Shown in pieces: positions 3,814 through 32,601 of a stretch of 32,601 bases of DNA. A model generated the notes under the pieces. That model had not been told where the DNA came from and searched no databases. It was given only the letters and a program-made list of their open reading frames with translations. Each line of letters begins with the position of its first letter. The first letter of the stretch is position 1. Source of the DNA: a virus (taxonomy: Duplodnaviria; Caudoviricetes); IMG/VR virus record IMGVR_UViG_3300012942_000549, positions 1-32,601 of that record; one strand, 5' to 3'. The position numbers and the translations under genes are program-made.

Positions 3814-4071
3814 TTACGCTGCTTCAGCCTGGCGTGCAGCCAGCTGGGCATTCTTGAACTCCTTGGCCTCGGTGAGCTCGACCATCATCTCGTTGGCCGT
3901 TCTCCGGAGAAGGTAGAGTGAAGACTGCACATAGGAAGTATCCTGGCCCTTCAACGAAGCCAACTGGCGCTTGACCGCGCGAATCTTCTCGCTCTGTGCC
4001 TTGTAACGGGCACGCCAATCGGCACGATAAGCCAGATACTCTTCGCGGGTCGTGAAAGTGAAATTAGTCAT
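3814..4071 (-). CDS. hypothetical basic helical protein
   Basis: GGAGGAG before ATG 4071 (MTNFTFTTREEYLAYRADWRARY). Confidence 0.8.
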   Translation of the reverse strand: MTNFTFTTREEYLAYRADWRARYKAQSEKIRAVKRQLASLKGQDTSYVQSSLYLLRRTANEMMVELTEAKEFKNAQLAARQAEAA

Positions 4072-4378
4072 GTTGTGCTCCTCCAAAAGTAAGTTTGAAT
4101 AGCGCCGCAATATCCCGACGCTCGAAATACCAGCGGCTGCCACCGCCGTTCACCCAATAGGATGAAGATTGCCCATCACACCACCGACGCATCTCGGAGT
4201 AACTGCCTCCTCGAGTATCGACAGTGGTGTATTCGGGCCATGCCGCACGAAGCATCTCGCTCCAAAGCCGATCCTTCATCTGAGTCACAGGATTGGCAAA
4301 GTTGACGTTATGCTTGCGCCACACGCTCAGGTAAGCCTGAGTGGCTTCCTGCATGGCTGTTTGAAACTCCGGTTTCAT
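4064..4378 (-). CDS. hypothetical protein, A-x-x-FKL-T-W/F family
   Basis: C-terminal DIAALFKLTFGG; start overlaps the pth2 stop. Confidence 0.75.
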   Translation of the reverse strand: MKPEFQTAMQEATQAYLSVWRKHNVNFANPVTQMKDRLWSEMLRAAWPEYTTVDTRGGSYSEMRRWCDGQSSSYWVNGGGSRWYFERRDIAALFKLTFGGAQHD

Positions 4379-4836
4379 CAGCCGACCACCGAAAAACGCT
4401 TGGTGATCGCATGGGCCTGCTCCTTGGTACAGGGCCCAATACCGAGCGCCGTCACGATGGGGTTGCCATCGAACGCAGTACCCGGAATGACATGGGTCTT
4501 ATCCACAATGAGCGAGGTGATCAGACCAGCTGCCTTGGCCTCTTCATAAGCGCGCTGGATAGCTGCTTCGTTCTTGGCCTTGAGGATGATCTGAGTGCCG
4601 ATGAAGTCGGGGCCCTGATAAACACGCAGGAGTTCAGGATCGCGTCGGCTCGCGAGGAGCACACAATTCTTGGCCGCGTGACAAGCCTGGCTTGCCATCT
4701 TGCCCGGAGTCATCTCCAGGTCGCCGCGAATGATGCTGTAGATGCGAAGCTTGTTGGAGGCAGCTTCGAAGGCCTCATCGTCATTATCCGCTTCGTAGCG
4801 GGCAATGGCTTCCTACAGGAACGAGTTGGTCAACAT
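4378..4836 (-). CDS. pth2: peptidyl-tRNA hydrolase, Pth2 family, with in-frame UAG at codon 8 (4813-4815)
   Basis: LRIYSIIRGDLEMTPGKMASQACHA and TALGIGP are Pth2 motifs. The first strand lies upstream of the ORF-track Met (4713). The SD-preceded ATG (AAAGGA, 4836) is in frame and reads MLTNSFL-TAG-EAIARY. Confidence 0.85.
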
Positions 4837-4879
4837 TGTGTATTCCTTTCTCTACGTATCCAACATCGGATACCAGTTC

Positions 4880-4907
4880 AACATATGGCAGTTTTCAAAC
4901 GTGTCAA
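4880..4907 (-). promoter_or_regulatory. sigma70-like promoter of the pth2 operon
   Basis: TTGACA-16 nt-TATGTT, followed by a GTATCC/GGATAC hairpin in the leader. Confidence 0.5.
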
Positions 4908-4916
4908 CCGCCAATT

Positions 4917-5267
4917 TCAAATTATTTCACCCAACCCTGAGCCTTTCAGATGAATGACACCATTCTCATCAGGCTCTTCCTTGGGCTCCGGTGATGTACA
5001 ACCGCTTTTGCTGGCATACTTGAGCTTCCACATCATTGCTCCATCTTCATTGCCATTTGGAAATTGGATGTGAAGGCTTTCTGGATGCCATTCACCACCC
5101 CATTCCTTGAGGTCGGCCAACACTTCAGGCTTCAGGTGTGGTGGATCAGCATCTGACCAATGATCCTCGACCGTTAGGCCATCTTCCCAGAGATTGATCA
5201 GGCCATAGTCGAAAACGTGAAGGGTGGGGAGCTCACCATTATGGCCACTCCAGGTCCAATAAGTCAT
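4917..5267 (-). CDS. hypothetical protein (FKL-like motif GAMMWKLKY)
   Basis: ATGA overlap with the upstream gene; 116 aa. Confidence 0.7.
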   Translation of the reverse strand: MTYWTWSGHNGELPTLHVFDYGLINLWEDGLTVEDHWSDADPPHLKPEVLADLKEWGGEWHPESLHIQFPNGNEDGAMMWKLKYASKSGCTSPEPKEEPDENGVIHLKGSGLGEII

Positions 5268-5620
5268 CGCCACCTCAACTTAAACATCATCGCATCCTTT
5301 GGTGATTCGAATATGACACCGACGCTTGAAGAGCAACCGCTATCCCAACCAATCTTCTTGAAATCACCGAACTTGACGTTTTGGTCAAGCCATGGTTTCA
5401 TTTCAGAGAAGGTGGAGGCGATGAAGCCAGTAATCCGAACTAGGAACCAGCCAGGGTATTTGGAATTCACACTATCCACGAAGTCTAGGTCGGGGAAGTC
5501 ATCTTCCGCATAGAGGCTATTGATCTTCGCCTCACCTAGCTTGCCGTCTTGCTCAGGTAGAGTCACATCATCGAACCAAACGTCGACGTGATCATCATTT
5601 TCAGTAGGGTAATAGGGCAT
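5264..5620 (-). CDS. hypothetical protein, FKL family
   Basis: C-terminal FESPKDAMMFKLRWR; start ATG 5620 or GTG 5629. Confidence 0.75.
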   Translation of the reverse strand: MPYYPTENDDHVDVWFDDVTLPEQDGKLGEAKINSLYAEDDFPDLDFVDSVNSKYPGWFLVRITGFIASTFSEMKPWLDQNVKFGDFKKIGWDSGCSSSVGVIFESPKDAMMFKLRWR

Positions 5621-5648
5621 TGAAATCACTCACTTTGTATCAAAGACT

Positions 5649-5750: not shown

Positions 5751-6191
5751 TTAGATCAATCCGCGCTCATGACACTCTTCCAACACACCACGGTAGACGC
5801 GCATGTTGGGCTGATAGGGGCCGCGCCCGAAATACTTGCTATCATCACCGTTGATAGCTTTATCCAGGGCCGCCGCGACACCCGCACTACGACACCTGCC
5901 CATGAGGCAGTGAACGTAGATGACGCTGATGCCGCGCTCACGATGGGCGATCACGAAATCAACGATCCTCTTGGCCATGGTGTTGTCGAAGAGGATCCGA
6001 TCCTCTGTCTCGGGCTCACCATTCTTATAGGCATCGATATCGTGGAACTGCAGGTTCAGCCGCCCGACCATGAATTCATTCTCATGAACCTCGGGGAAAT
6101 CACCCTTCTCACAGATGCTGATCAGCGCCCAATAGGTGTTGGGCGGATTGACTGCCATCATTGTGGCGCGGCTGTAGACTACGAACTTCAT
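5751..6191 (-). CDS. protein tyrosine / dual-specificity phosphatase family protein
   Basis: VHCLMGRCRSAG = HCxxGxxRS signature. Confidence 0.85.
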   Translation of the reverse strand: MKFVVYSRATMMAVNPPNTYWALISICEKGDFPEVHENEFMVGRLNLQFHDIDAYKNGEPETEDRILFDNTMAKRIVDFVIAHRERGISVIYVHCLMGRCRSAGVAAALDKAINGDDSKYFGRGPYQPNMRVYRGVLEECHERGLI

Positions 6192-6257
6192 ATGGCTGAT
6201 CTACAGCGATACACCAGAATGTCAAGCGTCTGGTAACACCAGCTTTGCATTCTCGAA

Positions 6258-7058
6258 TCATGCTTCATCAGCTTCAGGAGGATCGAGGGCAGGTGGTATC
6301 TTGTCAATATCTTCGCGCTGGGCCTGTTGCCAGTTATAGACACAACGATCCAAACCGATAGCAATCTCGAGCACACGAGCGTCTTTCTCGAGTAGCTCTT
6401 TCTTACCCTGAAAGACCAGTTTCTGGGGGAAGTCAGTTCGTAAGCTGATCGAGCAGACTTCCATCCACTTGTCGCCATTCCAGACTTCAACATCCATAGT
6501 CTTCAGGCTATAGGAGGGTAGACGATCACTTTCTACGATCCTAGTGGGGAGATGGATCATCGCTCCAATCATCTTCCTCACCGGTTCGAGCATAGCCGCG
6601 TGATAATCATTTGCCGTATCAGCAGTGAAAATACACTGGAACTCCTGCTGATAGAACTCCTTCAACCGCATGTGCTTGGTTGGCTGGATGATTTCTCGCC
6701 GAAAGCTCTTACCCGCCTGCCACACCACAAGAGGTGGAAAGACGCCCAACTGGCTGTTGAGTAGATATTGGGCATAGGCATAGCTGCCAGGAGTGGTCTC
6801 GGGCCTCAGGGCGAGTTGCCTTCCGCCTTCACCCATCCTTTCCCCTTGAACCCAAATGTCATCCGGTGTGTAATTCTCATTGAGGAGATCGCGCGGATTG
6901 AGTAACGGCGCCTCGATGTAATGGAAGACCCAGCGGCCATTTAGGGCGAGGAGATCAGCCCTGACCCTAGCTGCGAAGAAGTCCCGGAAGGTTTCTCGCA
7001 GTTTGATCTCCTCCTCATTCCAGAAGACCAGACCGTTGATGTTGAAGGGGTTCTGCAT
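6258..7058 (-). CDS. minimal class II aminoacyl-tRNA synthetase, GlyRS (alpha2-type)-like catalytic core without anticodon-binding domain
   Basis: LRPETT; motif 2 QAGKSFRREI...RLKEFYQQEFQ; WMEVCSISLRTDF; motif 3 LEIAIGLDR; ends about 28 aa after motif 3. Confidence 0.8.
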   Translation of the reverse strand: MQNPFNINGLVFWNEEEIKLRETFRDFFAARVRADLLALNGRWVFHYIEAPLLNPRDLLNENYTPDDIWVQGERMGEGGRQLALRPETTPGSYAYAQYLLNSQLGVFPPLVVWQAGKSFRREIIQPTKHMRLKEFYQQEFQCIFTADTANDYHAAMLEPVRKMIGAMIHLPTRIVESDRLPSYSLKTMDVEVWNGDKWMEVCSISLRTDFPQKLVFQGKKELLEKDARVLEIAIGLDRCVYNWQQAQREDIDKIPPALDPPEADEA

Positions 7059-7426
7059 TAGGCGCAGTTCATCTCTACGGCCCGGCCGAACTCAATCCAG
7101 GCCTTGCTCTTTGGTTCACGGATATGGGTAGCAGCCACCGTGCCATTCTCGAAGATCTTGACACGGAAGAAGATCTCGAGCCCCGCATAACGGAAGCCAT
7201 TCGCACAACGATCAGGTAGACCCAGCTCAGTAGCTTCATGGTCATTATCGCTCTTGCTTGTGCCGAGTCTGAATTCATCGGTCTCGATGGGCCATTTGAT
7301 CTCACGCTCCGCTCCACGATGCATTCGTTCAGCTTTGATCTTAGCCTCGAGTTCATCGAGCTCTGCGTCTTTGAAGTTCTTGAATTCTCGATCTGGGTCT
7401 TGACCCATTGTGGCCAATACAAACAT
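7058..7426 (-). CDS. hypothetical protein
   Basis: AGGAGG SD directly after the tRNA; TAATG overlap with the synthetase start. Confidence 0.7.
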   Translation of the reverse strand: MFVLATMGQDPDREFKNFKDAELDELEAKIKAERMHRGAEREIKWPIETDEFRLGTSKSDNDHEATELGLPDRCANGFRYAGLEIFFRVKIFENGTVAATHIREPKSKAWIEFGRAVEMNCA

Positions 7427-7445
7427 GACATGCCTCCTATTCTAG

Positions 7446-7519
7446 CGTCCCTGCCGGGGATCGAACCCGGAACCTGCAGATTTAGAGTCTGCCGCTCTAG
7501 CCAGTTGAGCTACAGGAAC
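7446..7519 (-). tRNA. amber suppressor tRNA, anticodon CUA
   Basis: GTTCCTG TA GCTC AACTGGCTA GAGC G GCAGA CT-CTA-AA TCTGC AGGTT CCGGG TTCGATC CCCGG CAGGGAC G: full cloverleaf; anticodon at 7485-7483; followed by CTA rather than CCA. Confidence 0.93.
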
Positions 7520-7527
7520 ATGGCTCC

Positions 7528-7556
7528 TATTTAGGGCTTTTTCCCTAAAGAGTCAA
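7528..7556 (-). promoter_or_regulatory. promoter of the tRNA-ORF-synthetase unit
   Basis: TTGACT-17 nt-TAAATA; the -10 is also a CTAAATA motif; TTTAGGG/CCCTAAA inverted repeat. Confidence 0.6.
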
Positions 7557-7573
7557 CCGTTCTCATCCGATAT

Positions 7574-7607
7574 GGAGATGGCGGAACCTGCGCTCCGCCA
7601 TCCACCA
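7574..7607 (-). terminator. stem-loop after gene 7609..8208
   Basis: GATGGCGGA/TCCGCCATC inverted repeat next to the stop codon. Confidence 0.5.
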
Positions 7608-7608
7608 A

Positions 7609-8208
7609 TTAGTCGAGTTCGCTATACTTGCTGGCCATACCATCCGACATACGCTGGAACAGGCCGGCCACCGCATTGTAGAGCGACGCGAATACTCGCT
7701 GGAGGAAATCGCCCAGGAACGTCTCGATGAGCGAGAAGATCCAGAAGACCATCCACGTAGTGATTCGCGCCTTGTTATGCCTGACCATGCGGGTGTAGGT
7801 CACATCCACACCAGCACCCCTTACAGCACTCGCGAATAGATCTCGAGTCTGCTGGTCAGCTGGCATATCCTTCAAGCCTTTCTGAGCCAACCATGACTGG
7901 CGGAACTCATCATAGGCGTCGAAGATCTTGGGCAGGTAAAAGAGGCGCCATTTGATAGTGGCCCAGACGACCGCTAGGGCCAAATATCCCAGGAACCCAT
8001 AAACGATATACCAGGGGTGCGTGGTAATCACCCCTCCTAGTGAGGTCTTCGCATCGGTAAATGCGAAGATTGCCAAGGCCGAACCGATCAGGGTTACTGA
8101 TGCCATTCCAACCTTTTCATCGTTGATCTCGGCCGCGATGACCAGAGCAATAACACCGACGATGATCCAGAAGAGGATCCCGCCGAACGTGATAAAATCA
8201 TAGACCAT
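7609..8208 (-). CDS. hypothetical multi-pass membrane protein
   Basis: 3-4 hydrophobic segments; GGAGGA and TAATG overlap with cysS. Confidence 0.8.
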   Translation of the reverse strand: MVYDFITFGGILFWIIVGVIALVIAAEINDEKVGMASVTLIGSALAIFAFTDAKTSLGGVITTHPWYIVYGFLGYLALAVVWATIKWRLFYLPKIFDAYDEFRQSWLAQKGLKDMPADQQTRDLFASAVRGAGVDVTYTRMVRHNKARITTWMVFWIFSLIETFLGDFLQRVFASLYNAVAGLFQRMSDGMASKYSELD

Positions 8209-9560
8209 TAGGTCCTCCTCCATTCGGTGCCGTGAATACCATCGGCAAGCGTGATCCCCATAAGTGTAAGTTGCTGACGGATCCTATCAGCTTCAGCATA
8301 ATCCTTGTTGAGTCGTGCCATACCTCTAGCGGCGATTAGAGCCTCAACCGCTTCTTTGTCAACATCCAGAGTGCGCCATTGGTGAGGTGTATGTGAAAAC
8401 AATCCTAGCATTCTGCCACATGTGAGCAGCTGAGCCTTAGCCATAGCTCTATTGGATTCCGACCCATTCAGGTCATCCGTAAAGCTATGAAGGAGGCTTA
8501 GAGCCAAAGGCGTGTTTAGATCCCCGTAGAGGGCCTCCATGAATGCCTCATTGGGTCTTACTACCTCAGGGTAGTTAAGATCGTCGGCTGCGTACAGAGT
8601 ATCGTAGAGCCCAGATAGAGCCCTGTGTGATTGTTCCAATTTATCCCAGGTGAAATCCATGGGGCTGCGGTAGTGGCTCCGCAAGAAAAAGTATCTAACT
8701 GACTCAGCTGGATAGCGCTCAAAGAGCTCATTCAACAGGATCACGTTACCGCGACTCTTTGACATCTTTTCGCCATCAACGGTCAGGAGACCATTGTGGA
8801 GCCAATAGCGAGCCAGGGGCTTATCCAGGGCACAATGGCTCTGGGCGCACTCGGCTTCATGATGGGGAAAGCGTAGATCCTGACCACCTCCATGAATGTC
8901 GATGGTTTGCTCCTGGAACTCTTTGGCGATCATAGCCGAGCATTCAATATGCCACCCTGGCCGACCTTTACCCCAGGGCGAATTCCACCAGGGTTCGCCA
9001 GGTTTGGCTGGCTTCCAGAGCACGAAATCCCTTGGATCCTTCTTCTTAGGATCAATGGCAACTCGACCGCCTGAATCCAAATCCGTATGATTAGCCAGAC
9101 CAGGGTGGGGATTGCTAGGAACGTGAAAGAAGACCTCACTGTTCCTCACGTAGGCATGTCTGGAGACTACCAGCCGTCTGATCAAAGTGATCATAGCCTG
9201 AACCGATTCAGTAGCCTTGGGCTCAAGAGTAGGAGGCAGGCAGTTCAGAACCTGAAGATCGGCATGATAGGCCGCAAGAGCTGGTTCAGTAATCTCACTG
9301 ATCTCCATGCCTTGCTGATTAGCCGCCATGATGATCTTATCATCGATATCTGTGACATTCCTCGCATAACGAACGCTCTGATTACCATAGACATGTCGTA
9401 ATACCCGAAAGAGCTGGTCGAAGACTAGAGCTGGTCGGGCATTGCCAATATGTGCTGGCCCATAAACGGTGGGCCCACACACATACATCGTGACATTTCT
9501 GGAGTCACCCGGCGTGAATGTCTCGAGACTTCTGGTCTGGCTGTTATAGAGTTCAATCAT
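8208..9560 (-). CDS. cysS: cysteine--tRNA ligase
   Basis: MYVCGPTVY, HIGN, NVTDIDDKII, GRPGWHIECSAM, DIHGGGQDLRFPHHE, KMSKS. Confidence 0.97.
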   Translation of the reverse strand: MIELYNSQTRSLETFTPGDSRNVTMYVCGPTVYGPAHIGNARPALVFDQLFRVLRHVYGNQSVRYARNVTDIDDKIIMAANQQGMEISEITEPALAAYHADLQVLNCLPPTLEPKATESVQAMITLIRRLVVSRHAYVRNSEVFFHVPSNPHPGLANHTDLDSGGRVAIDPKKKDPRDFVLWKPAKPGEPWWNSPWGKGRPGWHIECSAMIAKEFQEQTIDIHGGGQDLRFPHHEAECAQSHCALDKPLARYWLHNGLLTVDGEKMSKSRGNVILLNELFERYPAESVRYFFLRSHYRSPMDFTWDKLEQSHRALSGLYDTLYAADDLNYPEVVRPNEAFMEALYGDLNTPLALSLLHSFTDDLNGSESNRAMAKAQLLTCGRMLGLFSHTPHQWRTLDVDKEAVEALIAARGMARLNKDYAEADRIRQQLTLMGITLADGIHGTEWRRT

Positions 9561-9599: not shown

Positions 9600-10019
9600 T
9601 TATCGGCCACCAAAGGTTAGCTTGAAAAGAGCAGCCGTTCCTTTATCAGAAAATCGAACTCGTATCCAGGGCTTCTCATCATCAGGCAAGGGCTTATTGT
9701 GAGCCTTCATCATGTAGCCTTCGATCGAGAATCTATGGCCCACAGTCATTTTGACCTTGCCCCGTGTGACCATGGTTTCTATCCATGGCCAGATCTGCTG
9801 ATCATTGTGTATCCAGAGGTTGGATTCGAGGATTTCTTTGAGGCTTTTGGTCTGATCCGCACCGATGCTTTTGTAGGTCAGATCTCGGAGAACTACTTCA
9901 GCCCTATAGGGTCGGAACCTATCCCAGAAGCTGCCTGCCTTGTAGTAGTGGAAGAAGATGCCATGATCGAGTGGATTATCCCCTCCACCACTCCTACGAA
10001 CTTTCTGGCGGAAGATCAT
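9600..10019 (-). CDS. hypothetical protein, FKL family
   Basis: C-terminal FSDKGTAALFKLTFGGR; ATGA overlap. Confidence 0.75.
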   Translation of the reverse strand: MIFRQKVRRSGGGDNPLDHGIFFHYYKAGSFWDRFRPYRAEVVLRDLTYKSIGADQTKSLKEILESNLWIHNDQQIWPWIETMVTRGKVKMTVGHRFSIEGYMMKAHNKPLPDDEKPWIRVRFSDKGTAALFKLTFGGR

Positions 10020-10363
10020 CGACCACCCCACGTAAGTTTGGCCAACATTGCCGTCTTCTTATCGGTGAATCTAACAGTCATGTCAGAGGTGAAAACCAGG
10101 GCATCTTTATCGCTCGGTGTTGGAATTTCAACCTTGAAACGACCACGACCATGATCTTTGAACCATGCTCTCAAGGAGACTCCATTGGCCGAACCAACCA
10201 CCATATCAATGGTGCGTTTACATGGATTGGGTAACCAGATCGCGCTAGCTTCGGGTATGATAAAATCAACGGTATAGCGGCGACGTAAATGAAAGAGGTC
10301 ACGCCATTTCAGAAAGGTGATGTGAATGAAATCATGATCAATCTTCCGATAGATCCACATCAT
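10016..10363 (-). CDS. hypothetical protein, FKL family
   Basis: C-terminal FTDKKTAMLAKLTWGGR. Confidence 0.7.
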   Translation of the reverse strand: MMWIYRKIDHDFIHITFLKWRDLFHLRRRYTVDFIIPEASAIWLPNPCKRTIDMVVGSANGVSLRAWFKDHGRGRFKVEIPTPSDKDALVFTSDMTVRFTDKKTAMLAKLTWGGR

Positions 10364-11772: not shown

Positions 11773-12081
11773 CTAGTGTATGGTGCGAGATTGTAGGAAT
11801 AGCGGTAAGGCTGGTTTGTGATGTAGGAATGAAGGGCTGAGCTTATAATAGACAGCCTCTCTAGGATCTTGGAAGACCAGTCTGATGTAGGTATGTGGTC
11901 GTTCTTTGGTTATTTGAATTTCTTCGAGATTCCAAGGGCTTCGGCAATGCTTACGTAACCAGATTTCGATCAGGCTGTAGAGCATATCGACATCTGTCTG
12001 CTTGAGGTGTGTAACCTCAAGCACGATGGGGAAGCCCCTAGCTAGCACCGTCTGTTGGTTAGTGGATCTCAGAATATTCAC
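11773..12081 (-). CDS. hypothetical protein (FKL-like motif EAVYYKLS)
   Basis: Likely start at GTG 12081, which avoids overlap with the ligase; TAAATA upstream; ends in TAG. Confidence 0.6.
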   Translation of the reverse strand: MNILRSTNQQTVLARGFPIVLEVTHLKQTDVDMLYSLIEIWLRKHCRSPWNLEEIQITKERPHTYIRLVFQDPREAVYYKLSPSFLHHKPALPLFLQSRTIH

Positions 12082-12130
12082 CCCGTATTTATGGGTCGTG
12101 CTATCAAGGTAACACGACCCAAGGGGTCTG

Positions 12131-13324
12131 TCACTCCTCCGTAGGCGTATCCCTGAAGGCTGACCAGGAACTGCCTCCCCATACCCATCGGAAGGCATTT
12201 ACTTTGGTCTGTGACCCTAGATTATCACCAACCGCATTGGCCAACATGTCGTAAACGGCATCTTCACCATCCTCGATATGGTCCCAGGTCCAGAAGAGGA
12301 AGCGGGCATCTGGGCGAGTCTTCACCCGGTCTGCAAACTTCTTCTTACTACCGTTGAGGTTGTCAAAATCGGCCTGAACTTCCCAGTAGAGATCAGACGC
12401 CCTCTTCTTCAACCCAGTGAAGATTGATTTCGCGAAATCATCGGCTCGACTGACCAGATCCTCCGGTAGGAAGGGTTTGGCATCGTCGAGTTTTTCATCG
12501 AGGATAAGCCGAATCACATCCTTCTCAAAGTTGAGGTGTTCGAGAGTCTTGTGAATCAGGCAGTAGTGATCACCTTTGAGCTTCAACATGTGACCAGCGC
12601 GATTTCGCCACACATCGCCTTCACGCCCTTCTAGCGCACGAATCTCGGCTACCGCCTCTTCATCGAAGCCAGTGATCTCTGGGCCAGCCTGAACCAAAGG
12701 AATATCGTAGGTATCGGCCTCCTCTCGCATCTCGTCATATGACTTGTAGGTGCCTGTGATGTTCTCCCTAATAGCTGTCAGAACTAGCGCTTCCTCAGGG
12801 TAATCAATCACGATTCGCTGCTGGCGTGAACACCATTCGAAGATAGGCGTGAAACCCTGGTCTATCCAATACTTCGCGAACTCATGGTAGTGGATCTTAT
12901 CCCGAGTGAATTCATCAACAGGTTTAGCAACATCAGTCAAACCCATCTTGGTACACCATCGGATCTCACCATTGATAAGAAGCGGTGTGATCATCGAACC
13001 ATCAAGTTTGTCGAACTTGCGATAAGGCACTGACCAATCGACATTGGTTGGCAAGGTTTCGGGCCGTTCACCCAAGTTGAAGAACTTGTGATACTTGCGC
13101 GACAGGATCTCACCGGTGGAGGTTCTGAATGTGATCCCACGACATTCACGCAGAATCGCCGTTCGCTCATCGGTCACCGGAGGAAAGGTATCCTCGAAAT
13201 TCACCGCATAGTTGACGATCGTATAATCGTGCTCATCCGAAACACGAATCACGAATTCTTCACGACCTTCAATCGCGTCAAGAACTTGGCTCAGATGGGT
13301 GATCACTGGAAATTGGTAAGTCAT
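12131..13324 (-). CDS. RNA ligase, T4 Rnl1-like
   Basis: RECRGI, KFFNLGE, motif I KLDGS, FEW, EGDV, KLK. Confidence 0.9.
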   Translation of the reverse strand: MTYQFPVITHLSQVLDAIEGREEFVIRVSDEHDYTIVNYAVNFEDTFPPVTDERTAILRECRGITFRTSTGEILSRKYHKFFNLGERPETLPTNVDWSVPYRKFDKLDGSMITPLLINGEIRWCTKMGLTDVAKPVDEFTRDKIHYHEFAKYWIDQGFTPIFEWCSRQQRIVIDYPEEALVLTAIRENITGTYKSYDEMREEADTYDIPLVQAGPEITGFDEEAVAEIRALEGREGDVWRNRAGHMLKLKGDHYCLIHKTLEHLNFEKDVIRLILDEKLDDAKPFLPEDLVSRADDFAKSIFTGLKKRASDLYWEVQADFDNLNGSKKKFADRVKTRPDARFLFWTWDHIEDGEDAVYDMLANAVGDNLGSQTKVNAFRWVWGGSSWSAFRDTPTEE

Positions 13325-14208: not shown

Positions 14209-14520
14209 TTAGGAGCCTTCCCAGGCCTGATGACCACCACGAAGTTTGAACATCAAGGCATCGTTCTTATCCTGGAACCGAACCACCATGATATAGTCAT
14301 TGGATTTACCCTTAGGGTTCTGGTAGGTGTAGGCCTGCCATTCACCTGGCGTATTGCTGGCCATCCAATCTTTGATGGCCTCGCTGGCATCCCATCCATT
14401 AGGAATGGTGAATAAGACCCTCGTCCAAGACGGATTCATTGGCCCCTGAGATCGATTTCGAAATAGTTGGTCCCTGGGGATCTCGAAGTCGGTGAAGACT
14501 AGACTTTCTGGATAGCTCAT
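14209..14520 (-). CDS. hypothetical protein, FKL family
   Basis: FQDKNDALMFKLRGG. Confidence 0.75.
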   Translation of the reverse strand: MSYPESLVFTDFEIPRDQLFRNRSQGPMNPSWTRVLFTIPNGWDASEAIKDWMASNTPGEWQAYTYQNPKGKSNDYIMVVRFQDKNDALMFKLRGGHQAWEGS

Positions 14521-18577: not shown

Positions 18578-19168
18578 ATGGATAGTCTTAAAAGGATCGT
18601 TGGTCTTACTGGTGGCATGGGTGCAGGTAAGAGCACCCTCGTTGAGGTCGTAAAGGATCTAGGAATCCCCATCTATGATGTAGATCAAGCCGTTCACGAG
18701 CTTTACCAGAACAGCCAGGTCGCTGATTACATTGGTGCGGAGATTGGTCTTGATGCGCCAGTGACTCGCCAAATGGTCGCTCAACAGGTCACCAAGTTTC
18801 CCAACCTCCTCACTCGGGTTGAGGAACTCATGATGGAGAATCTAGAACTGGATCTCCGGGGCCGTATCATGTTTGGTGATATCTCTCCCTTCCTTGTCAT
18901 TGACGCACCACTGCTCTTTGAAATGGGCTGGGCTAAGCAATGCGATTTTGTTATCGCTATCCAGTGTCCCAGAGAAATCCGCGAAGAGCGTGTCATGAAG
19001 CGGCCTGGTATGACTCAGGAGAAGATGATCCTACTAATGGATCGCCAGATCAGTGAAGCAGATCGTCTGGTCAAAAGCCATTACATCATCCACAATGATG
19101 GCGTGATTGAGTCAGCTCAGATGAAAATGCGCAATATCATCGAACACCTGAAGGGGTTATACTCATGA
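18578..19168 (+). CDS. coaE: dephospho-CoA kinase
   Basis: VGLTGGMGAGKST, DVDQAVHELY, DAPLLFE, RQ, IIHNDG. Confidence 0.92.
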   Translation: MDSLKRIVGLTGGMGAGKSTLVEVVKDLGIPIYDVDQAVHELYQNSQVADYIGAEIGLDAPVTRQMVAQQVTKFPNLLTRVEELMMENLELDLRGRIMFGDISPFLVIDAPLLFEMGWAKQCDFVIAIQCPREIREERVMKRPGMTQEKMILLMDRQISEADRLVKSHYIIHNDGVIESAQMKMRNIIEHLKGLYS

Positions 19169-19692
19169 GCACGGTCGGCCTTTACGCCGGATCCTTTGAT
19201 CCACTTACCAGGGGTCACTTGGATATCCTGAGTAAGGCGGTTCAAACCTTCGAAACCACCCATGTTGCGGTTGGTAAGAACGCCGCCAAGACCGGCTTCT
19301 TCCCCGTTGAGCGACGCCTCGAACTCATCGAGAGCGCCATCAAGGAATGGAAGAACCCGATCCTATCCCAGGCATTAAGCCATGGTCGATTGCTGATGGG
19401 CAAATACTCAGGAATCAGTATCATCAAATACGCGCATGATGTGGGTGCTACTCATATCGTCAGGGGCCTTAGACAGGCCAGCGATTTCAATGATGAGTTT
19501 TCGCTCACAGGTATAGCGGGCCGCTTGGATAGCAGCGTAATCTTCACCCACTTCATCTGCCAAGAGACCTATCTCCACGTCAGTAGTTCAACGGCTCGTG
19601 AACTCGCAATGCTTGGTGAGGATGTCAGCTGGTTGGTCACACCATCGGTTGAGCAAGCGCTCAAGGAACGGTGCTTCCAACCGGCCTATTAG
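19165..19692 (+). CDS. coaD: phosphopantetheine adenylyltransferase
   Basis: YAGSFDPLTRGHLDI, IVRGLRQASDFNDE, VSSSTARE; ATGA overlap with coaE. Confidence 0.93.
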   Translation: MSTVGLYAGSFDPLTRGHLDILSKAVQTFETTHVAVGKNAAKTGFFPVERRLELIESAIKEWKNPILSQALSHGRLLMGKYSGISIIKYAHDVGATHIVRGLRQASDFNDEFSLTGIAGRLDSSVIFTHFICQETYLHVSSSTARELAMLGEDVSWLVTPSVEQALKERCFQPAY

Positions 19693-20030: not shown

Positions 20031-20903
20031 CTACTTAGCAGGAACCTCAATTTGAGTCAAGGTAAAGGGCGGATTCTCCCTTGGATAGCCACGAGCATTG
20101 TTGGCGTAGATGATCCCATCCTTTTGAACCATCTGTCGCTGATGGGTATGACCGTAGATCCAATGACTGATCTTCTTGTTGGTATTCTGGCCTAGAACTG
20201 ACTGAAGGCCACTGTTTACATAGCTTGGTGTTAGGGCATTCCAAACAGCATTGTTGGTCTTCCACTCCATGATATCGCCCCTTGGGCTCATGTGGGTGGT
20301 CAGAACGATGTGATTGATAGCATCATCTTCATTCGCCAGTTTGACTTGCTCAGCCAGATTAACGGCCTGAACCATAGCTAGGAATTCTGGTGAGCCGCAA
20401 TCGAACTTTGGATAGACCGAATCATTGCTGTATTGCTTCCAAGTAACACGAGCGATAATCTCGCTGATACCTCGGTCTTCGAAGCACTTCCAATCATACC
20501 AACCAGTGACGCCAAGAAACGCCACATCATCGACTACCAGGCCCGTCTCTCCATCAAGATGCCAGACATTCGGCAAATGTGAAGTCAGTTGCTTGAGGAG
20601 GGCTCCACCTTTCTCGACACTTACACCGCTATCATAGTGGTCATGATTACCGTCAATGACGGCTACGTATTCATATGATTGAGCCGCTACTTCAAGAACA
20701 GATGCCGTGGTAGTCATGGTATTCGCTGTATCTCCAGCAATGACTAGGATTCGGCTATCTGGGTTCTTGTAAACTTCCCAATCAATATGAACGAAGGTAG
20801 ACTTATAGGGCTCACCAAGCCACATTCTCTCCTTGGGGTCATGGAGTTTGGTTTCATGAAGCCAGGCATCGACATGGAGGTCAGAGCAGAAATCGATTTT
20901 CAT
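20031..20903 (-). CDS. calcineurin-like metallophosphoesterase
   Basis: SDLHVD, IAGD, GNHDHY, THMSP, YGHTH. Confidence 0.9.
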   Translation of the reverse strand: MKIDFCSDLHVDAWLHETKLHDPKERMWLGEPYKSTFVHIDWEVYKNPDSRILVIAGDTANTMTTTASVLEVAAQSYEYVAVIDGNHDHYDSGVSVEKGGALLKQLTSHLPNVWHLDGETGLVVDDVAFLGVTGWYDWKCFEDRGISEIIARVTWKQYSNDSVYPKFDCGSPEFLAMVQAVNLAEQVKLANEDDAINHIVLTTHMSPRGDIMEWKTNNAVWNALTPSYVNSGLQSVLGQNTNKKISHWIYGHTHQRQMVQKDGIIYANNARGYPRENPPFTLTQIEVPAK

Positions 20904-25934: not shown

Positions 25935-26780
25935 TTATGCCATACCAGCGTAAAGGTGCTGCTGGAGGTTATAAGTCAGACCATGAGCCACACAGTAGTT
26001 GGCCGTGTATTCATGATTGGTCTGGTTGGCTTTCATATCAAGGAGCCCGTCTTCCCAGAAGGAGATAACCTCATCGACATTCGAACGCTCACCGATTTTG
26101 ATGTTATCGGTTGAGTATTCCTCGTCAAACTTCCTTGGAGCCTTCTTGTAGATATTCATCGGGCTGACGAAGATCTCACGACCAGTCTTATCTCGCCAAT
26201 CCATAGCCCACTGAGGAACCGATGAATAAGGTGAATCAGGATCACTACTCATCACGAATTTTAGGCAATTGGCGCGTTCGAGTGTCTGTTGGTTAGGATT
26301 CAGATACTTGACCGCGATACCCTGCTTTTCGAGGCACTTTGGGCTAACCACGAGGCAGGTTTCATCTGGAATCTCAGTGAATACCACGCCGTTGCTCTCA
26401 ATCTGTGAATACCTAAATTCCTGGTTCACTCGTGTGAGTAGCTGGTTGATATTCTTCTGGAGCATTGGTTCGCCGCCAGTAAGCACGAAAACAGCTTCCT
26501 TCTTCTTCCCAGCCATGTAGGGCGGAAGGGTTCCGTTGAAATGATCAACGATTGAAGAATTCACCTCTGTCATCAGCTCATCAACTGTGAACCAGTCACC
26601 GTTATCAAAATAGGTATCGCAGAAGCTACACGCCAGGTTACACTTTGCTAGCCTTACGAAGAACGCAGGATGACCACGATATGGCCCTTCACCCTGGAGA
26701 GTCATGAAGCGAGATACGACAAGCAACCCCTCGGCATCCTTGAAGAACTTCTGACCCACGATTTGATTTTTACCGAACAT
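25935..26780 (-). CDS. queE: 7-carboxy-7-deazaguanine synthase (radical SAM)
   Basis: TLQGEGP..G.PAFFVRLAKCNLACSFCDT, LTGGEPMLQ, IESNG, VSPK, QQH. Confidence 0.9.
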   Translation of the reverse strand: MFGKNQIVGQKFFKDAEGLLVVSRFMTLQGEGPYRGHPAFFVRLAKCNLACSFCDTYFDNGDWFTVDELMTEVNSSIVDHFNGTLPPYMAGKKKEAVFVLTGGEPMLQKNINQLLTRVNQEFRYSQIESNGVVFTEIPDETCLVVSPKCLEKQGIAVKYLNPNQQTLERANCLKFVMSSDPDSPYSSVPQWAMDWRDKTGREIFVSPMNIYKKAPRKFDEEYSTDNIKIGERSNVDEVISFWEDGLLDMKANQTNHEYTANYCVAHGLTYNLQQHLYAGMA

Positions 26781-27393
26781 TCTTTAACTCCAATCCAAAA
26801 CCGAGATCATGAGTGTGTTTGCCACGCCACTCTTTTACCATTCTTCGGCCACCAATATTCAAGACCTTGCCTTTACAGTATTCCTTCAGGGCTCCGGTAT
26901 CGGTAACAACTCTGATGTTACCTTTCTCACGTTCCACTTTAGCAGCATTGGTGGCATCTAGCCAAGTTTCAAACACACCCCAAGGCGTCTTGATAAAGTG
27001 AGTGCTCTGATAATTGTTGCCTGATGAAACCTTCTCATGAGTTAGATGAGCTCTATTTTTAGGCCCCCTCATTCTGGAAGTATCTTTGATTTTCCAAGTA
27101 CGACCAATCTTTCCTCGTCCGCCACCCATTCCATCCTCTTCGCGAAGGTTGGCCCAATTATCATCTTCAACCACATTAAAAAGTCTGGAATAATAGATGC
27201 CAGCTCTCTTGAGTTCTTCATGAGTCTCATAAGTGCCTAGAATGCAGGTGATGATTCTTGGTCTATGAACTCGAAGGTGATTTAACCATCGTTTCCCTGA
27301 TCCCTTATAACTATAAGGATCCTGTCTAGAAGTTTGGCAAAGGTAGAAAAGGCCAGTTGGATAGGCTTTCTTTATCATCAAACAATATATCAT
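26770..27393 (-). CDS. GIY-YIG (Seg-like) free-standing homing endonuclease
   Basis: IY...FYLCQT...YKGSGKRW..HL, WANL..E.G.GG, basic C-terminal DNA-binding region. Confidence 0.7.
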   Translation of the reverse strand: MIYCLMIKKAYPTGLFYLCQTSRQDPYSYKGSGKRWLNHLRVHRPRIITCILGTYETHEELKRAGIYYSRLFNVVEDDNWANLREEDGMGGGRGKIGRTWKIKDTSRMRGPKNRAHLTHEKVSSGNNYQSTHFIKTPWGVFETWLDATNAAKVEREKGNIRVVTDTGALKEYCKGKVLNIGGRRMVKEWRGKHTHDLGFGLELKNVR

Positions 27394-27686
27394 TCAAGTA
27401 ACGCACGAATTGATCTTACAACTGCTTCTTGGGCATCACTACTCTTGGTTTTGCTATCTATAACTGATTGTGCCGCTGATCCTATAACCTCTATTGATTC
27501 AAGCATTTCTTCTTGTGTTAATTCAATGCCTTGAGATCGTTTTGAACTCATAGTTTCTTTGTTGGCCTCTGCTATTTTCATCAACTTGCTTGCTTTGACA
27601 AGTTCATAATGAGCCTTTTTAAGATCGTTGATAGAATCAACGATCTCATCAAATCTTACATCCCAAACTGGAGCCTCGAAACTCAT
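27390..27686 (-). CDS. hypothetical protein (AT-rich)
   Basis: AAGGAG SD; 98 aa. Confidence 0.7.
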   Translation of the reverse strand: MSFEAPVWDVRFDEIVDSINDLKKAHYELVKASKLMKIAEANKETMSSKRSQGIELTQEEMLESIEVIGSAAQSVIDSKTKSSDAQEAVVRSIRALLE

Positions 27687-27695
27687 ATTTTCTCC

Positions 27696-28181
27696 TTATT
27701 GAAACCAATCAAACCGTGTTTTTATGCCATCCTGTTGAGCCTTGATACCAAGATCAGCTATCTTCTGTGTGAAACCTGTTAGATCAATGTGTGGTGCCAT
27801 ACGGAAGTTAAAAATTACAGAAGATTGTAAATCACAAAGGGCGGAGCCCACCTTTTTGCGGTTCCAAAACAACCATCTTCCAATACCGTATGATTTTAAT
27901 CGGAGATTCCTGATACTAGTTTTAATGTTCTTGATTTCTTCCTCAATAGCAAAGCTAATGTCCTGTGAATCTAAACCTGGCTTGGTTCTGATAGAGCTCT
28001 TGGTCACCATCAATTCTATTTCAGAAGCTGAGTGAACCAAATCATCCAACATTATGGATAATGCGTCATTGTAGTCTTTTAGAGATTTCGCGATATTAAA
28101 AATGGTAGTCAATACAATACCGCTAATGAACACAACTAATAGACTAGTTATAAGAGAAGTAATATTCACGCCTTCCACCAC
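27696..28181 (-). CDS. hypothetical membrane protein (AT-rich)
   Basis: N-terminal TM segment; start may be GTG 28169. Confidence 0.65.
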   Translation of the reverse strand: MVEGVNITSLITSLLVVFISGIVLTTIFNIAKSLKDYNDALSIMLDDLVHSASEIELMVTKSSIRTKPGLDSQDISFAIEEEIKNIKTSIRNLRLKSYGIGRWLFWNRKKVGSALCDLQSSVIFNFRMAPHIDLTGFTQKIADLGIKAQQDGIKTRFDWFQ

Positions 28182-28654
28182 TCTTCATAAGGGAAGATAA
28201 CCCAGCGCTCATCCTCAGCGCGGGAAATCTCTCGACCCACATAATCAGCCTCGAATTCATCCTGTGAAATGTTGTTCCACAAGACAGCGGTCTTCACATT
28301 GCTCAAATCAGGATTAACCGGAGGATCGTAGCTGATGTTATTGATGATAATACGCAGGGTAGCACCAGAATCGCAAATATCATCTACCAGAAGGAGCTTC
28401 TTACCTTTTTGGTATTCCTTGCGAAAGGTATCCATAGAATCATGGCCCTGATCAACCTTATCATCACGTAGGCTGATATTCAGGCAAACCAGAGGCACAT
28501 TGAAGTAATGGCTCAACATGGTTGCTGGTACCAGGCCACCACGTGCGATACCAAAGATGATATCAGGGCGAAATCCCTCTAGTGTCATCTGTCGGAGGAT
28601 CTCTTGAAGATCCCCTCGCATCTGTTCATCGGTGTATAGGATCTTATCAGGCAT
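28166..28654 (-). CDS. type I phosphoribosyltransferase (Gpt/Hpt-like)
   Basis: GIARGGLVPA, LLVDDICDSGATL PRPP motif, WVIFPYE. Confidence 0.9.
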   Translation of the reverse strand: MPDKILYTDEQMRGDLQEILRQMTLEGFRPDIIFGIARGGLVPATMLSHYFNVPLVCLNISLRDDKVDQGHDSMDTFRKEYQKGKKLLLVDDICDSGATLRIIINNISYDPPVNPDLSNVKTAVLWNNISQDEFEADYVGREISRAEDERWVIFPYEEWWKA

Positions 28655-29333
28655 TCTTGATCTCCGAGAGAACTGGAGTAGAAAGGGTGATATTCTTGCC
28701 TAGTGGAATGGTCTGCGCATTAGCCACCTGAGTTACTGGCCCAATGGCAAACCGAGCAATCACCTTCTCGAATAGATCGCTACGAACCTCTGGATCATAA
28801 TGGCTGGTCGACTTATCATCAAACATCTGTCGTGAGTAACCGGTCCAACCACATTTGAAGGCGTTGAACTTGGCATCTACCTTTCTGAGCTCCATGACAT
28901 ATTCATCCCAAACCCTGCGGCTCTCTGGAGTCATGATATCATCGGCATGGAAGACGCAGGTCTTCTTGTGCTTATCTGAACTCAGGATGTAGATACAACC
29001 AGGCTTGGGTGGTACACCGTTGTACATGGGCTTGCTACCCTTGGTTGATTTGGCTTCTAGATCCTGATATTGACCAGTATCAAAGCGAATCAAGAAATCC
29101 GGATTACCGTTTGAACCAGCAGGTTGGCAGACGAAATGACCCTTAGGCAAGGCATTACGAACTGAATTGTAGCCAGTCAGATGACCCTTATGGAATTCCT
29201 TGAAGCCATAGCGAATCAGTAGCTGGCGGATGGATTCCTCATGCTTGGAACCAGAATAGCTACCACTTGCGTAGGCTAGATTCTGGAATGCATCTGTGAG
29301 GAAGGCTATGAAAGTATCAACATTAGCGTTCAC
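28647..29333 (-). CDS. PD-(D/E)xK nuclease, putative restriction endonuclease
   Basis: HEE...QPAGSNGNPDFLI...DLEAKS; coupled to the upstream methyltransferase. Confidence 0.65.
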   Translation of the reverse strand: MNANVDTFIAFLTDAFQNLAYASGSYSGSKHEESIRQLLIRYGFKEFHKGHLTGYNSVRNALPKGHFVCQPAGSNGNPDFLIRFDTGQYQDLEAKSTKGSKPMYNGVPPKPGCIYILSSDKHKKTCVFHADDIMTPESRRVWDEYVMELRKVDAKFNAFKCGWTGYSRQMFDDKSTSHYDPEVRSDLFEKVIARFAIGPVTQVANAQTIPLGKNITLSTPVLSEIKNA

Positions 29334-30192
29334 GAGTGTATTCCTTAATTACGTCGGCCTTGCCAAATCCTGGAATGCCGGAGTTGAGTTTGGATAATTC
29401 GGCGAAGTCAATTTGGTTTAATCGCTCTAGAGCTTCAGGCGTGTTTGCCTTGAAGAAGATCCACTGCTTCTTGCGGTCGCAATCTTCCTTCTTGTAAACC
29501 TTCACCGAATAGTCGTAGAAGCCCTGACGAGGAACCGCGAAGTCCCAGTTATAGTCGAAGAACCTCTCCGCTTGTTTGGTGCGATTGTATTGCCACATCT
29601 CAAAGTCAGGATGTGACGTTGGTGGTGCCCTATCCAATCGTAGATCCTTACACAGAGGGTGGTTCCTAGACCAGACCTGGAAGGAGGATCGGATTGAATA
29701 GGGCTTGCCTTCAATGGTGAATGAATCATCGGGTAGATCGGCATCCATGATAAGGCTAGCGCCCTTTTGAATCTTGGATTGAGCTGACCATTTCCTGAAT
29801 TGGATTGGTAGGATGAAACCAACAGTTCCAGATAGATCCAGGCATTTGTTGATGAAGGCGATCGCCGTCGCACCCTTTTTGCCGAAGGGTGGGTTACCCA
29901 GAAAAGCTACATCCTTGATATCGAGGTGTTCCCTGATATCCTGGTTGAGGAAGTCTAGCTCTACAATGCCAGCACCTTCGGGGAGGATATCAAAACCAGC
30001 AATCTTACGGCCAGCTTCTTGAGCGGCTCGTAGGAAGGATCCGTTACCTGCGCTGGGTTCAACCAACATGGCATTCTGGTCAATGAGCGGAAGAAAGAGC
30101 CCAAGACACAGAAGAGCAATGTCATCTTTGGTGTAATACTTGTCGAGGTCTTTGGCCGTCTGAACGGCATTGACCTTCTTATTCCTTGACAT
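29323..30192 (-). CDS. DNA amino-methyltransferase (probably N6-adenine)
   Basis: DKYYT, motif I VEPSAGNGSF, motif IV GNPPFG. Confidence 0.88.
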   Translation of the reverse strand: MSRNKKVNAVQTAKDLDKYYTKDDIALLCLGLFLPLIDQNAMLVEPSAGNGSFLRAAQEAGRKIAGFDILPEGAGIVELDFLNQDIREHLDIKDVAFLGNPPFGKKGATAIAFINKCLDLSGTVGFILPIQFRKWSAQSKIQKGASLIMDADLPDDSFTIEGKPYSIRSSFQVWSRNHPLCKDLRLDRAPPTSHPDFEMWQYNRTKQAERFFDYNWDFAVPRQGFYDYSVKVYKKEDCDRKKQWIFFKANTPEALERLNQIDFAELSKLNSGIPGFGKADVIKEYTRER

Positions 30193-30216
30193 CGCTCACC
30201 AGTTGTTTTTGTTTTA

Positions 30217-30251
30217 GGTGAGTGATCCTAACCCTAGGAATCACTCATCCA
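30217..30251 (-). terminator. stem-loop after folE
   Basis: TGAGTGAT...ATCACTCA inverted repeat. Confidence 0.4.
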
Positions 30252-30276
30252 GTTGATTGGTGGTATTGGGTGCCTG

Positions 30277-31071
30277 TTAGGCGTGACCCTTCATACTCAA
30301 CATGAGCTTGTAGAACTCATCCTTGAGCGAAGGCTCGTCGCGGAATTTACCACGCATAATTGCCGTGGTCATATCACTTTCATGCTCTCGCACGCCGCGA
30401 TTCGTCATACATCCGTGCTCAGCCTTCAATACGACCGCGACATTAGACGTCTCAGCGTATTCAACCAGAGCATCAGCAATCTGAGTGGTCATCTCTTCTT
30501 GGATCTGTGGTCGTTCCGCGATCCAGTGAACTAGACGGTTGAACTTCGACAGACCAATGACCTTATCTTCGGGGAAGATGCCTACCCAGCAATTACCAAT
30601 GATGGGCTGCTGGTGATGAGCACATTGGCTCCTAATACTGATAGGGCCAGCCGTATAGAGATCCTTGTAGCCCACGTTGGGGAAACTAGTGATCTTGGGT
30701 GCTGGTAGGTAACGACCGCTGTAGATTTCATTGACGTACATCTTGGCGACACGACGCGCAGTATCCGCGGTATTGTGATCGTTATCAGTGTCAATGACGA
30801 GGCTCCTTAGAACCTCTTCCATCTTCTGAGTAACCTCATCCACGAGTGCTTCTCGTTCACCTGGTTCGATGTAGTCGGCGATGTTATCGTTACAATGAAA
30901 CTGCTTACCAGCTTCGATGAGGCGTGCTCGAATCTTTTCAGAAACAGGCGGAGAAGAACCAAAGAAATGATCTTCTAGTGTCTCGGTTGATGTGTAAGCC
31001 TCTTGCCCGACGTTCTCATGCTCGCAGCAATTCTGGCCACAGCATTCATCGGTAAGTTTGGTATCGGTCAT
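30277..31071 (-). CDS. folE: GTP cyclohydrolase I
   Basis: TARRVAKMY, SQCAHH, IGLSKFNR, RPQIQE, AEHGCMTNRGV. Confidence 0.95.
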   Translation of the reverse strand: MTDTKLTDECCGQNCCEHENVGQEAYTSTETLEDHFFGSSPPVSEKIRARLIEAGKQFHCNDNIADYIEPGEREALVDEVTQKMEEVLRSLVIDTDNDHNTADTARRVAKMYVNEIYSGRYLPAPKITSFPNVGYKDLYTAGPISIRSQCAHHQQPIIGNCWVGIFPEDKVIGLSKFNRLVHWIAERPQIQEEMTTQIADALVEYAETSNVAVVLKAEHGCMTNRGVREHESDMTTAIMRGKFRDEPSLKDEFYKLMLSMKGHA

Positions 31072-31138
31072 TTACTGACTCTCCTTATAGTTGTTCCACA
31101 CTCTACTTAGACCTGGGTAGGTGCGTCAATATCTGGTG

Positions 31139-32228: not shown

Positions 32229-32477
32229 TCACATCCATGTCAGTTTGAATAGGGTGGCCACATCGTGATCCATTAGCTCTAGCCAGCAGTAGAGGTATTT
32301 CGTTTCTGCGTCTTTACCTTTACCCAGTTCAGTGGTAAGGTTGAGCTCATAGGTTGGTTCACGTTCCATGAGCCATTCATGCACATCAGGTCTGAGCTCA
32401 TAAACCATCCACGGATATGGTGGCTCTACATCCGTTCTAAGCCTATAGATTGGCTTTTTGAGGCGTATCGAGATCAT
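32229..32477 (-). CDS. hypothetical protein, FKL family
   Basis: C-terminal DVATLFKLTWM; ATGA overlap at 32477 (alternative start 32483). Confidence 0.7.
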   Translation of the reverse strand: MISIRLKKPIYRLRTDVEPPYPWMVYELRPDVHEWLMEREPTYELNLTTELGKGKDAETKYLYCWLELMDHDVATLFKLTWM

Positions 32478-32601
32478 AGCCATGTCAACTTGAATAGAAC
32501 CGCTTTGTTGTCATCTTCGATATTGATGGTGAGGTATTTGGTTCTCATGAACCCTCGGTCATTGTCCGTGAGGAGCGTGAATACTGGATCAATCTTGTGA
32601 A
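32474..32601 (-). CDS. hypothetical protein, FKL family (partial, 3' end)
   Basis: ...HKIDPVFTLLTDNDRGFMRTKYLTINIEDDNKAVLFKLTWL-TGA. Confidence 0.7.
   Translation of the reverse strand, partial: HKIDPVFTLLTDNDRGFMRTKYLTINIEDDNKAVLFKLTWL

Follow-up and report, generated by a model that had tools for sequence, protein, structure and literature searches.

The single tRNA gene in this viral DNA is most probably (we put it at roughly 80%) a phage amber suppressor that reads one conserved UAG, codon 8 of a gene for a Pth2-like hydrolase, with UAG otherwise kept as a stop codon. The window, by which we mean the whole stretch of 32,601 nucleotides that was analysed, belongs to the genome of a jumbo phage that uses the standard genetic code. 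It is syntenic with Sinorhizobium phage Phosso, the order kept being RNA ligase, ATP-grasp protein, CysRS, hydrophobic ORF, tRNA, small ORF, class II synthetase core, phosphatase-like gene and pth2-like gene. Two cultured relatives infect Sinorhizobium and Agrobacterium. An initial annotation of this DNA had described a suppressor tRNA and missed its likely target, the TAG-interrupted pth2 gene 2.6 kb downstream.

The CUA tRNA and its orthologues

ARAGORN called one tRNA in the whole window, on the minus strand at 7445-7519 with anticodon CTA, and the same stretch (7519-7446) matches Rfam RF00005 over all 71 model positions with a score (65.8 bits, E 2.3e-12) that is far above chance. The gene (7446..7519, minus strand) has the cloverleaf of that family with conserved D, T and anticodon loops; its body is canonical type I, with G73 and a short variable arm (a 5-nt loop), and covariation in nine orthologues accords with the call. 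These results bear out the suppressor tRNA previously placed at 7443..7519, and the features listed for it (G1-C72, U2-A71, U3·G70, G73, the short variable loop, and a genomic CTA at 7443..7445, minus strand, where CCA would be) are all read directly from the sequence. The single-strand minimum free energy fold is weakly distinctive (z -1.6), and BLASTN of the tRNA against phage records returned only generic tRNA matches of mixed isotype; in a simple alignment the nearest non-CUA tRNAs were those for Arg, His, Leu and Lys, with similar scores. Logan contigs of run X1 show 0 differences over 6163-7700 and 4726-5268, a match that is not independent because the run may be the source sample. Just ahead of the tRNA lies a putative promoter-like pair, TTGACT-17-TAAATA (7528..7556, minus strand), which is absent from the calls of a consensus promoter scan; a TTGAC motif stands at a similar distance from the tRNA in nine of 12 orthologues.

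A CUA tRNA lies shortly upstream of the synthetase core in Phosso and in each of the seven closest IMG/VR relatives, and three further orthologues were taken from metagenomes. Across an alignment of nine orthologous tRNAs, 100% of the cells are paired and two-sided change is seen in 15 of the 21 pairs. All seven acceptor-stem pairs vary: pair 1-72 is GC in seven and CG in two, pair 2-71 is CG in five, UA in three and GC in one, and pair 3-70 is CG in three and GC, UA and UG in two each. No change is seen in the D stem, in the loop CUCUAAA or at G73; selection evidently keeps the structure, the anticodon and the discriminator. The initial annotation had read the acceptor bases as part of an atypical identity set, a claim that this comparison does not support; of the features listed, the orthologues share just G73, the short arm and the CUA loop, and the acceptor bases it named therefore carry no conserved signal. 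Its expectation that CCA must be added after processing is correct and also ordinary: four of 12 orthologues do not encode CCA and eight do, the nearest relative (L009) encodes it, G005 encodes it in 27 of its 62 tRNAs, and a CCA-adding enzyme is encoded by four of the five relatives searched.

A second type of CUA tRNA, with A73, is present in or near the main tRNA region of six complete or near-complete relatives; it is located at 446731-446806 in W01 and occurs also in G003, G004, G005, G006, G007 and G027. G005 has three CUA tRNAs in total, and in G027 the A73 type is the only one, so the G73 copy may be redundant for the proposed role. In W01 the variable arm is short in several tRNA-Leu genes, and none of the 62 ARAGORN calls is a tRNA-Tyr. 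tRNA genes with intron-like inserts of ~35-50 nt in the anticodon loop were observed in Atu_ph07 (L167, L173, L174) and in G008 (79179-80252).

An early stop codon in a clade of Pth2-like genes

The pth2-like gene (4378..4836, minus strand; 152 codons given TAG readthrough) starts with an ATG at 4836 and runs for seven codons to an in-frame TAG at codon 8 (4813..4815, minus strand), which we refer to as the gate and which is followed by 144 open codons. Gene callers wrongly start it at 4713. There is no ATG, GTG or TTG between the TAG and the Pth2 domain, and the ORF called from the internal ATG at 4713, which matches Pfam PTH2 (E 6e-18, profile positions 13-113), is missing the first beta strand of Pth2; this strand aligns only with the sequence between the TAG and that ATG. 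Including the strand, the protein belongs to the Pth2 family, and solved Pth2 structures match it. The subfamily is mis-started in databases generally, most of the best 120 matches being 105-111 aa long. Ahead of the start on the minus strand are a sigma70-like promoter (4907-4880, 10 of 12 matches), a palindrome between promoter and ribosome-binding site (4873-4856) and the Shine-Dalgarno sequence AAGGA (4848-4844). The palindrome is possibly an operator or leader hairpin; it is conserved with covarying ends in L267-L272, L278, L283-L289 and L294, and in Atu_ph07 the -10 box is bracketed by a similar inverted repeat.

The catalytic residues of Pth2 are Lys, Asp and Thr. The putative catalytic Lys and Asp are invariant in 10 of 10 sequences, and in the Thr region the sequence is D-x-x-H-V/I, with an insertion; the structure model is of low confidence (pLDDT 57.5). 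Across the near clade the Pth2 domain is 69-99% identical, and all 11 close members that were aligned keep the TAG, with synonymous variation in the codons next to it; in Phosso the TAG is codon 4, behind a different leader. The pth2 stop codon overlaps the start of the next gene, and the gate may thus also tune that gene. A second, ungated Pth2-like gene stands beside the gated one in W01 (L070, near 18115) and G004 (L143, near 3565).

An early stop is present in 40 of 40 sampled members of one Pth2 clade, as TAG in 37 and TGA in three; TAA is the early stop in none of the 40. In a tree of 59 Pth2 domains, the 40 stop-bearing sequences lie on one side and 19 ungated ones on the other with support of 94/95, a split to be read with gate labels assigned by hand, a bootstrap that had not fully settled and long, unreliable branches in four ungated rows; the TAG-gated L306, together with L337, L340, L343, L289, L294, short fragments and duplicates, was omitted. 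The stop itself is kept even though its position ranges from codon 3 to codon 10 and the leaders around it are unrelated.

The tree indicates that TGA arose twice independently, and the anticodon changed with it. Atu_ph07, with a pth2-like gene 70% identical, has TGA at codon 7; L299 and L300 have it at codon 8, with a UCA tRNA ~4.3 kb downstream, where their TAG siblings L301 and L303 have a CUA tRNA at 3.1-3.4 kb. A UCA tRNA is found in all three TGA genomes (Atu_ph07, G033 and G034), and in Atu_ph07 it is the only suppressor (PMC6102473). None of the 30 Rfam matches in Atu_ph07, all of which were read, is a CUA tRNA, and none was detected by pattern in G033 (68% complete) or G034; likewise, whole scans of three TAG genomes contained no UCA tRNA. 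ARAGORN calls a CUA tRNA, at the locus or in the genome, for 25 of the 37 TAG rows; two more have an irregular one beside the gene and ten have none, nine of these ten being fragments or short loci. A CUA tRNA is present in seven of eight complete or near-complete TAG genomes; the counterexample is G008, rated complete and TAG-gated, with no CUA tRNA among 67 Rfam matches. CUA tRNAs also occur together with an ungated Pth2 in XacN1, Xoo-sp13, RAS14, RsoM2USA, Phabba and LR756511; the tRNA hence does not imply a gate, and other targets or roles exist. At two loci the reading frame of the Pth2 domain is shifted to +1 downstream of ATG...TAG (L302, near 9960-10000; L326, near 9990-10010), which reflects either a frameshift at the stop or an assembly error, and in L299 and L300 a GTG after the TGA could restart translation. 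The CUA-like tRNA adjacent to the L326 gene is irregular.

Candidate enzymes for charging

The ribosome-binding site of a 122-aa ORF (7058..7426, minus strand) directly follows the tRNA; no family was assigned to this ORF, and its slot is variable among relatives. Next to it is a minimal class II synthetase of 266 aa (6258..7058, minus strand), here termed mini-GlyRS, whose best sequence and fold matches are alpha2 GlyRS (Mycobacterium 8T5N, Thermus 1ATI). Its model (pLDDT 87) has only GlyRS among the top fold matches, and its class II core carries the glycine-pocket motifs, with RPET, the motif-2 Arg, Q-x-E and the motif-3 E...R all kept; the roles of the pocket residues are presumed. Unlike alpha2 GlyRS, to which it is ~20% identical, the predicted enzyme is without an anticodon-binding domain: there is no Pfam match to the C-terminal domain of that kind, and the protein ends ~25 residues past motif 3. 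A complete CysRS with its Cys anticodon-binding domain (8208..9560, minus strand; Pfam) lies on the other side of the tRNA, beyond a 204-aa hydrophobic ORF (7609..8223, minus strand) whose slot in Phosso holds a gene of similar size; as a complete Cys enzyme it was rejected as partner of the G73/CUA tRNA.

A synthetase gene next to the tRNA would be expected of an orthogonal pair, and mini-GlyRS lies within ~2 kb downstream of the tRNA in 12 of 12 G73-type loci. G027, placed with Phosso and L290 by the Pth2 tree, is without both the G73-type tRNA and mini-GlyRS and has kept CysRS. None of 31 further mini-GlyRS loci that were scanned has a CUA tRNA within 5-6 kb, and many of them lie in mixed tRNA arrays; in XbC2 a CUA tRNA is ~21 kb from mini-GlyRS, and W05, W06 and W07 have no CUA pattern match genome-wide (17 of the CUA-pattern loci were read by ARAGORN). 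At 23 more distant gated loci, mini-GlyRS is nearby in none.

ARAGORN labels the tRNA as tRNA-Pyl because of the anticodon alone. We rejected this label: tRNA-Pyl has a 6-bp anticodon stem, a 3-nt variable loop, no GG in the D loop and no TTC in the T loop, and the window tRNA has a 5-bp stem, a 5-nt variable loop and both GG and TTC. Of the bacterial tRNA-Gly set (U73, G1-C72, C2-G71, G3-C70, C35, C36; PMC9976931) it shares G1-C72 only; the tRNAs of L011 and L013 have all three Gly acceptor pairs, but G73. The earlier list of mismatched isotypes is incomplete, leaving out the G73 families (Gln, Trp, Asp, Asn and Ser) and tRNA-Glu. The acceptor determinants of tRNA-Glu include G1-C72 and U2-A71, and its bacterial set adds U35, A37, U11-A24, no base 47, U34 and C36 (PMC9976931); here the acceptor pairs, U35 and A37 agree, and C11-G24, a base 47, C34 and A36 disagree. 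Against the tRNA-Trp set (G73, C34, C35, A36, A1-U72, G2-C71, G3-C70, G4-C69; PMC9976931), G73, C34 and A36 agree, whereas C35 and every listed acceptor pair do not. G73, U35 and A37 agree with the tRNA-Gln set (G73, U35, G36, A37, U38, U1-A72, G2-C71, G3-C70), and the tRNA-Lys set is A73, U34, U35 and U36 (PMC9976931). In E. coli, U35 and G73 favour charging of such tRNAs by GlnRS or LysRS (PMC9976931) and A31-U39 favours LysRS (PMC1483225), so that U35 and A31-U39 of the window tRNA would favour Lys there.

Of 162 phage CUA tRNAs assayed in E. coli extracts, 90 showed strong activity and 42 stayed near background; among 29 active ones that were tested in E. coli, 28 inserted Gln or a residue isobaric with it (PMC12636597). 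The order to which Sinorhizobium and Agrobacterium belong was sampled around a Methylocella genome; of its 41 genomes searched, GlnRS was found in eight and class II LysRS in one. In five relatives, neither a phage GlnRS nor a phage class II LysRS scored over the cut-off, and phage GluRS, TrpRS and AspRS are patchy among relatives and absent from Phosso; host TrpRS (G73, C34, A36) or class I LysRS would remain as charging candidates. Charging by a host synthetase that reads G73 and the anticodon is our first choice, held with a slight lean, and charging by mini-GlyRS is a tentative second. Database Pth2 proteins have Gln at the TAG position; P0100, for instance, does not differ over a stretch of 124 residues from the product of L293, where that codon is TAG. 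We rejected this Gln as evidence of the inserted residue, since it is likely an artefact of translation with table 15, and the residue is therefore not readable from homologues. The phage GluRS of some relatives has ~40-48 profile positions missing (99-137/145) from its catalytic domain within one open frame of 422-439 aa (G003 348891-349706, G004 214127-214909, G007 285531-286343).

A proposed switch, its alternatives and neighbouring genes

We propose that the tRNA would be cut from a transcript running on into the mini-GlyRS gene, receive CCA, be charged and compete with release factor 1. Full-length hydrolase would then be made only as far as the charged suppressor beats termination, the outcome otherwise being a 7-residue minigene product. 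The inserted residue is probably immaterial because the stop lies in a variable leader, a view that fits the free drift of the acceptor stem. The purpose that we favour, which is the least certain step, is that the dosage and timing of a tRNA-recycling enzyme are made to depend on how well translation is terminating: with the stop read against one release factor, weaker termination or a build-up of the phage tRNA would raise the output, which would otherwise be capped. Short minigenes cause an accumulation of peptidyl-tRNA that is relieved by Pth (PMC2490762), and jumbo-phage Pth2 has been proposed to help ribosome rescue after host tRNA cleavage (PMC7824862). A more speculative extension, which we consider doubtful, is a self-contained switch in which mini-GlyRS, blind to the anticodon, would charge an amber tRNA of its own that host synthetases ignore, thereby licensing a Pth2-like counter-defence enzyme, and which could be rewired from UAG to UGA by joint change of codon and anticodon.

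In TAG-recoded (code 15) phages, a phage-encoded CUA tRNA competes with release factor 1. One may postulate that the window tRNA similarly serves partial or late-gene recoding, as in crAss-like or other code-15 phages, and CUA with G73 would fit the Gln insertion seen for 28 of 29 active phage tRNAs (PMC12636597). This scenario is largely refuted and we regard it as very improbable: opening TAG gave no greater long-ORF coverage than opening TGA in most 20-kb pieces of Phosso, G001, G004 and G005, and no release factor gene was found in five relatives. A cross-genome alignment with a coding-score filter left 10 TAG, 11 TGA and 20 TAA matches, with no TAG excess inside genes; pth2 was the only TAG match with an upstream start and no restart, in a comparison that is insensitive, having found the pth2 TAG in one genome pair only. 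A scan for a Shine-Dalgarno sequence and ATG followed by an early stop and a long ORF returned pth2 as the only match common to the window and four relatives, together with nine other matches each seen once. The many in-frame TAG genes and rise in coding density of code 15 phages, and the release factor that they often encode, are thus not seen; unlike those phages, what is involved here is one gene near its start, with no genome-wide or late recoding. An early stop that is merely leaky, through near-cognate readthrough, re-initiation or +1 frameshift, with the tRNA as a bystander, a decoy or a spare against host tRNA nucleases, is unlikely but less so. It would account for G008, for the two loci that continue in the +1 frame and for CUA tRNAs without a gate, yet it leaves unexplained both the twofold joint change of stop and anticodon and the absence of TAA in 40 rows. 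The premature stop and the missing CCA in the window might suggest that pth2 has decayed into a pseudogene and that the tRNA is a functionless mutant of a sense tRNA; this reading is effectively refuted by conservation, namely the 69-99% identity of the Pth2 domain, the synonymous change around an invariant stop, and the 15 compensatory pairs and invariant loop of the tRNA.

A further alternative, which is compatible with the gate, is that the G73 CUA tRNA and mini-GlyRS form a private pair that places glycine or another small residue at UAG without host enzymes. We consider this possible and less probable than charging by the host. The close linkage at all 12 G73-type loci, the absence of both partners from G027 where CysRS is kept, the GlyRS motifs of the enzyme and the rarity of GlnRS and class II LysRS in the sampled order all argue for it. 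Against it, the acceptor stem, which an anticodon-blind enzyme must read, is not conserved; the window tRNA is without the Gly elements C2-G71, G3-C70 and U/A73; the 31 further mini-GlyRS loci and the genomes W05, W06 and W07 lack the corresponding tRNA at the distances scanned; the enzyme is missing near all 23 more distant gated loci; and one gain explains the co-occurrence as one deletion explains the co-loss. A dedicated on-switch for one gene is likely a better description of the tRNA than a ready-made orthogonal tool; orthogonality to host synthetases, originally put forward as a possibility, may still hold. If mini-GlyRS does charge the tRNA, that earlier tool idea gains a real candidate, and with a true private pair, genetic code expansion would have a natural scaffold of 266 aa that works independently of the anticodon.

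Programmed bypass of a stop codon is known as a means of control, as in prfB autoregulation at an early UGA and in RNA-phage readthrough. As in prfB, the output of a gene of translation quality would depend on failed termination at an early stop; unlike both precedents, the predicted bypass is by the virus's own cognate tRNA and not by frameshift or near-cognate misreading. Phage suppressor tRNAs are already known. The accessible parts of the respective reports state that the authors found no target for the CUA suppressor of the standard-code jumbo phage XacN1 (PMC5852040) and named none for the UCA suppressor of Atu_ph07 (PMC6102473), and the CUA tRNA of AP-J-162 was called tRNA-Pyl (PMC11242549). 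The window phage resembles these three in having a suppressor tRNA while keeping its stop codons, and differs from the XacN1 and Atu_ph07 reports in that a specific early stop tracks the anticodon. The XacN1 Pth2 is ungated, which leaves its suppressor tRNAs still unexplained. The protein resembles the archaeal/eukaryotic-type Pth2 of jumbo phages (PMC7824862) in matching Pfam PTH2 and Pth2 structures; unlike other jumbo-phage Pth2, it belongs to a separate clade and has a stop-bearing N-terminal leader and a changed D-x-x-H loop with an insertion. The literature searched, with subscription papers mostly outside it, contained nothing on a stop-gated phage Pth2 or on this minimal GlyRS; what the present analysis adds is a count across the whole clade, two swaps from UAG to UGA that are matched by the tRNAs, and the free drift of the acceptor stem. 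Together they supply a concrete candidate target for suppressor tRNAs reported without one in standard-code jumbo phages, and two cultured systems for tests, Phosso (UAG/CUA) and Atu_ph07 (UGA/UCA). A suppressor tRNA kept for switching on one gene would put stop codons to a use other than genome recoding.

Elsewhere in the window, paralogous small ORFs that end in a similar F/A-K-L-x-W/F-G-like motif are located at 4064-4378, 4917-5273, 5264-5629, 9600-10031, 10016-10363, 14209-14520 and 32229-32483; the five that were scanned had no Pfam match. The region 25935-32227 (minus strand) encodes a QueE-like radical SAM protein and FolE (Pfam) and, by eye, phosphoribosyltransferase-, methyltransferase- and glycosyltransferase-like ORFs, and is possibly a 7-deazaguanine or DNA-modification cluster. 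On the opposite, plus strand, 18578-19692 encodes a dephospho-CoA kinase and a CoaD-like adenylyltransferase; the latter, like the ORFs at 11773-12198 and 20031-20903, has TAG as its terminal stop.
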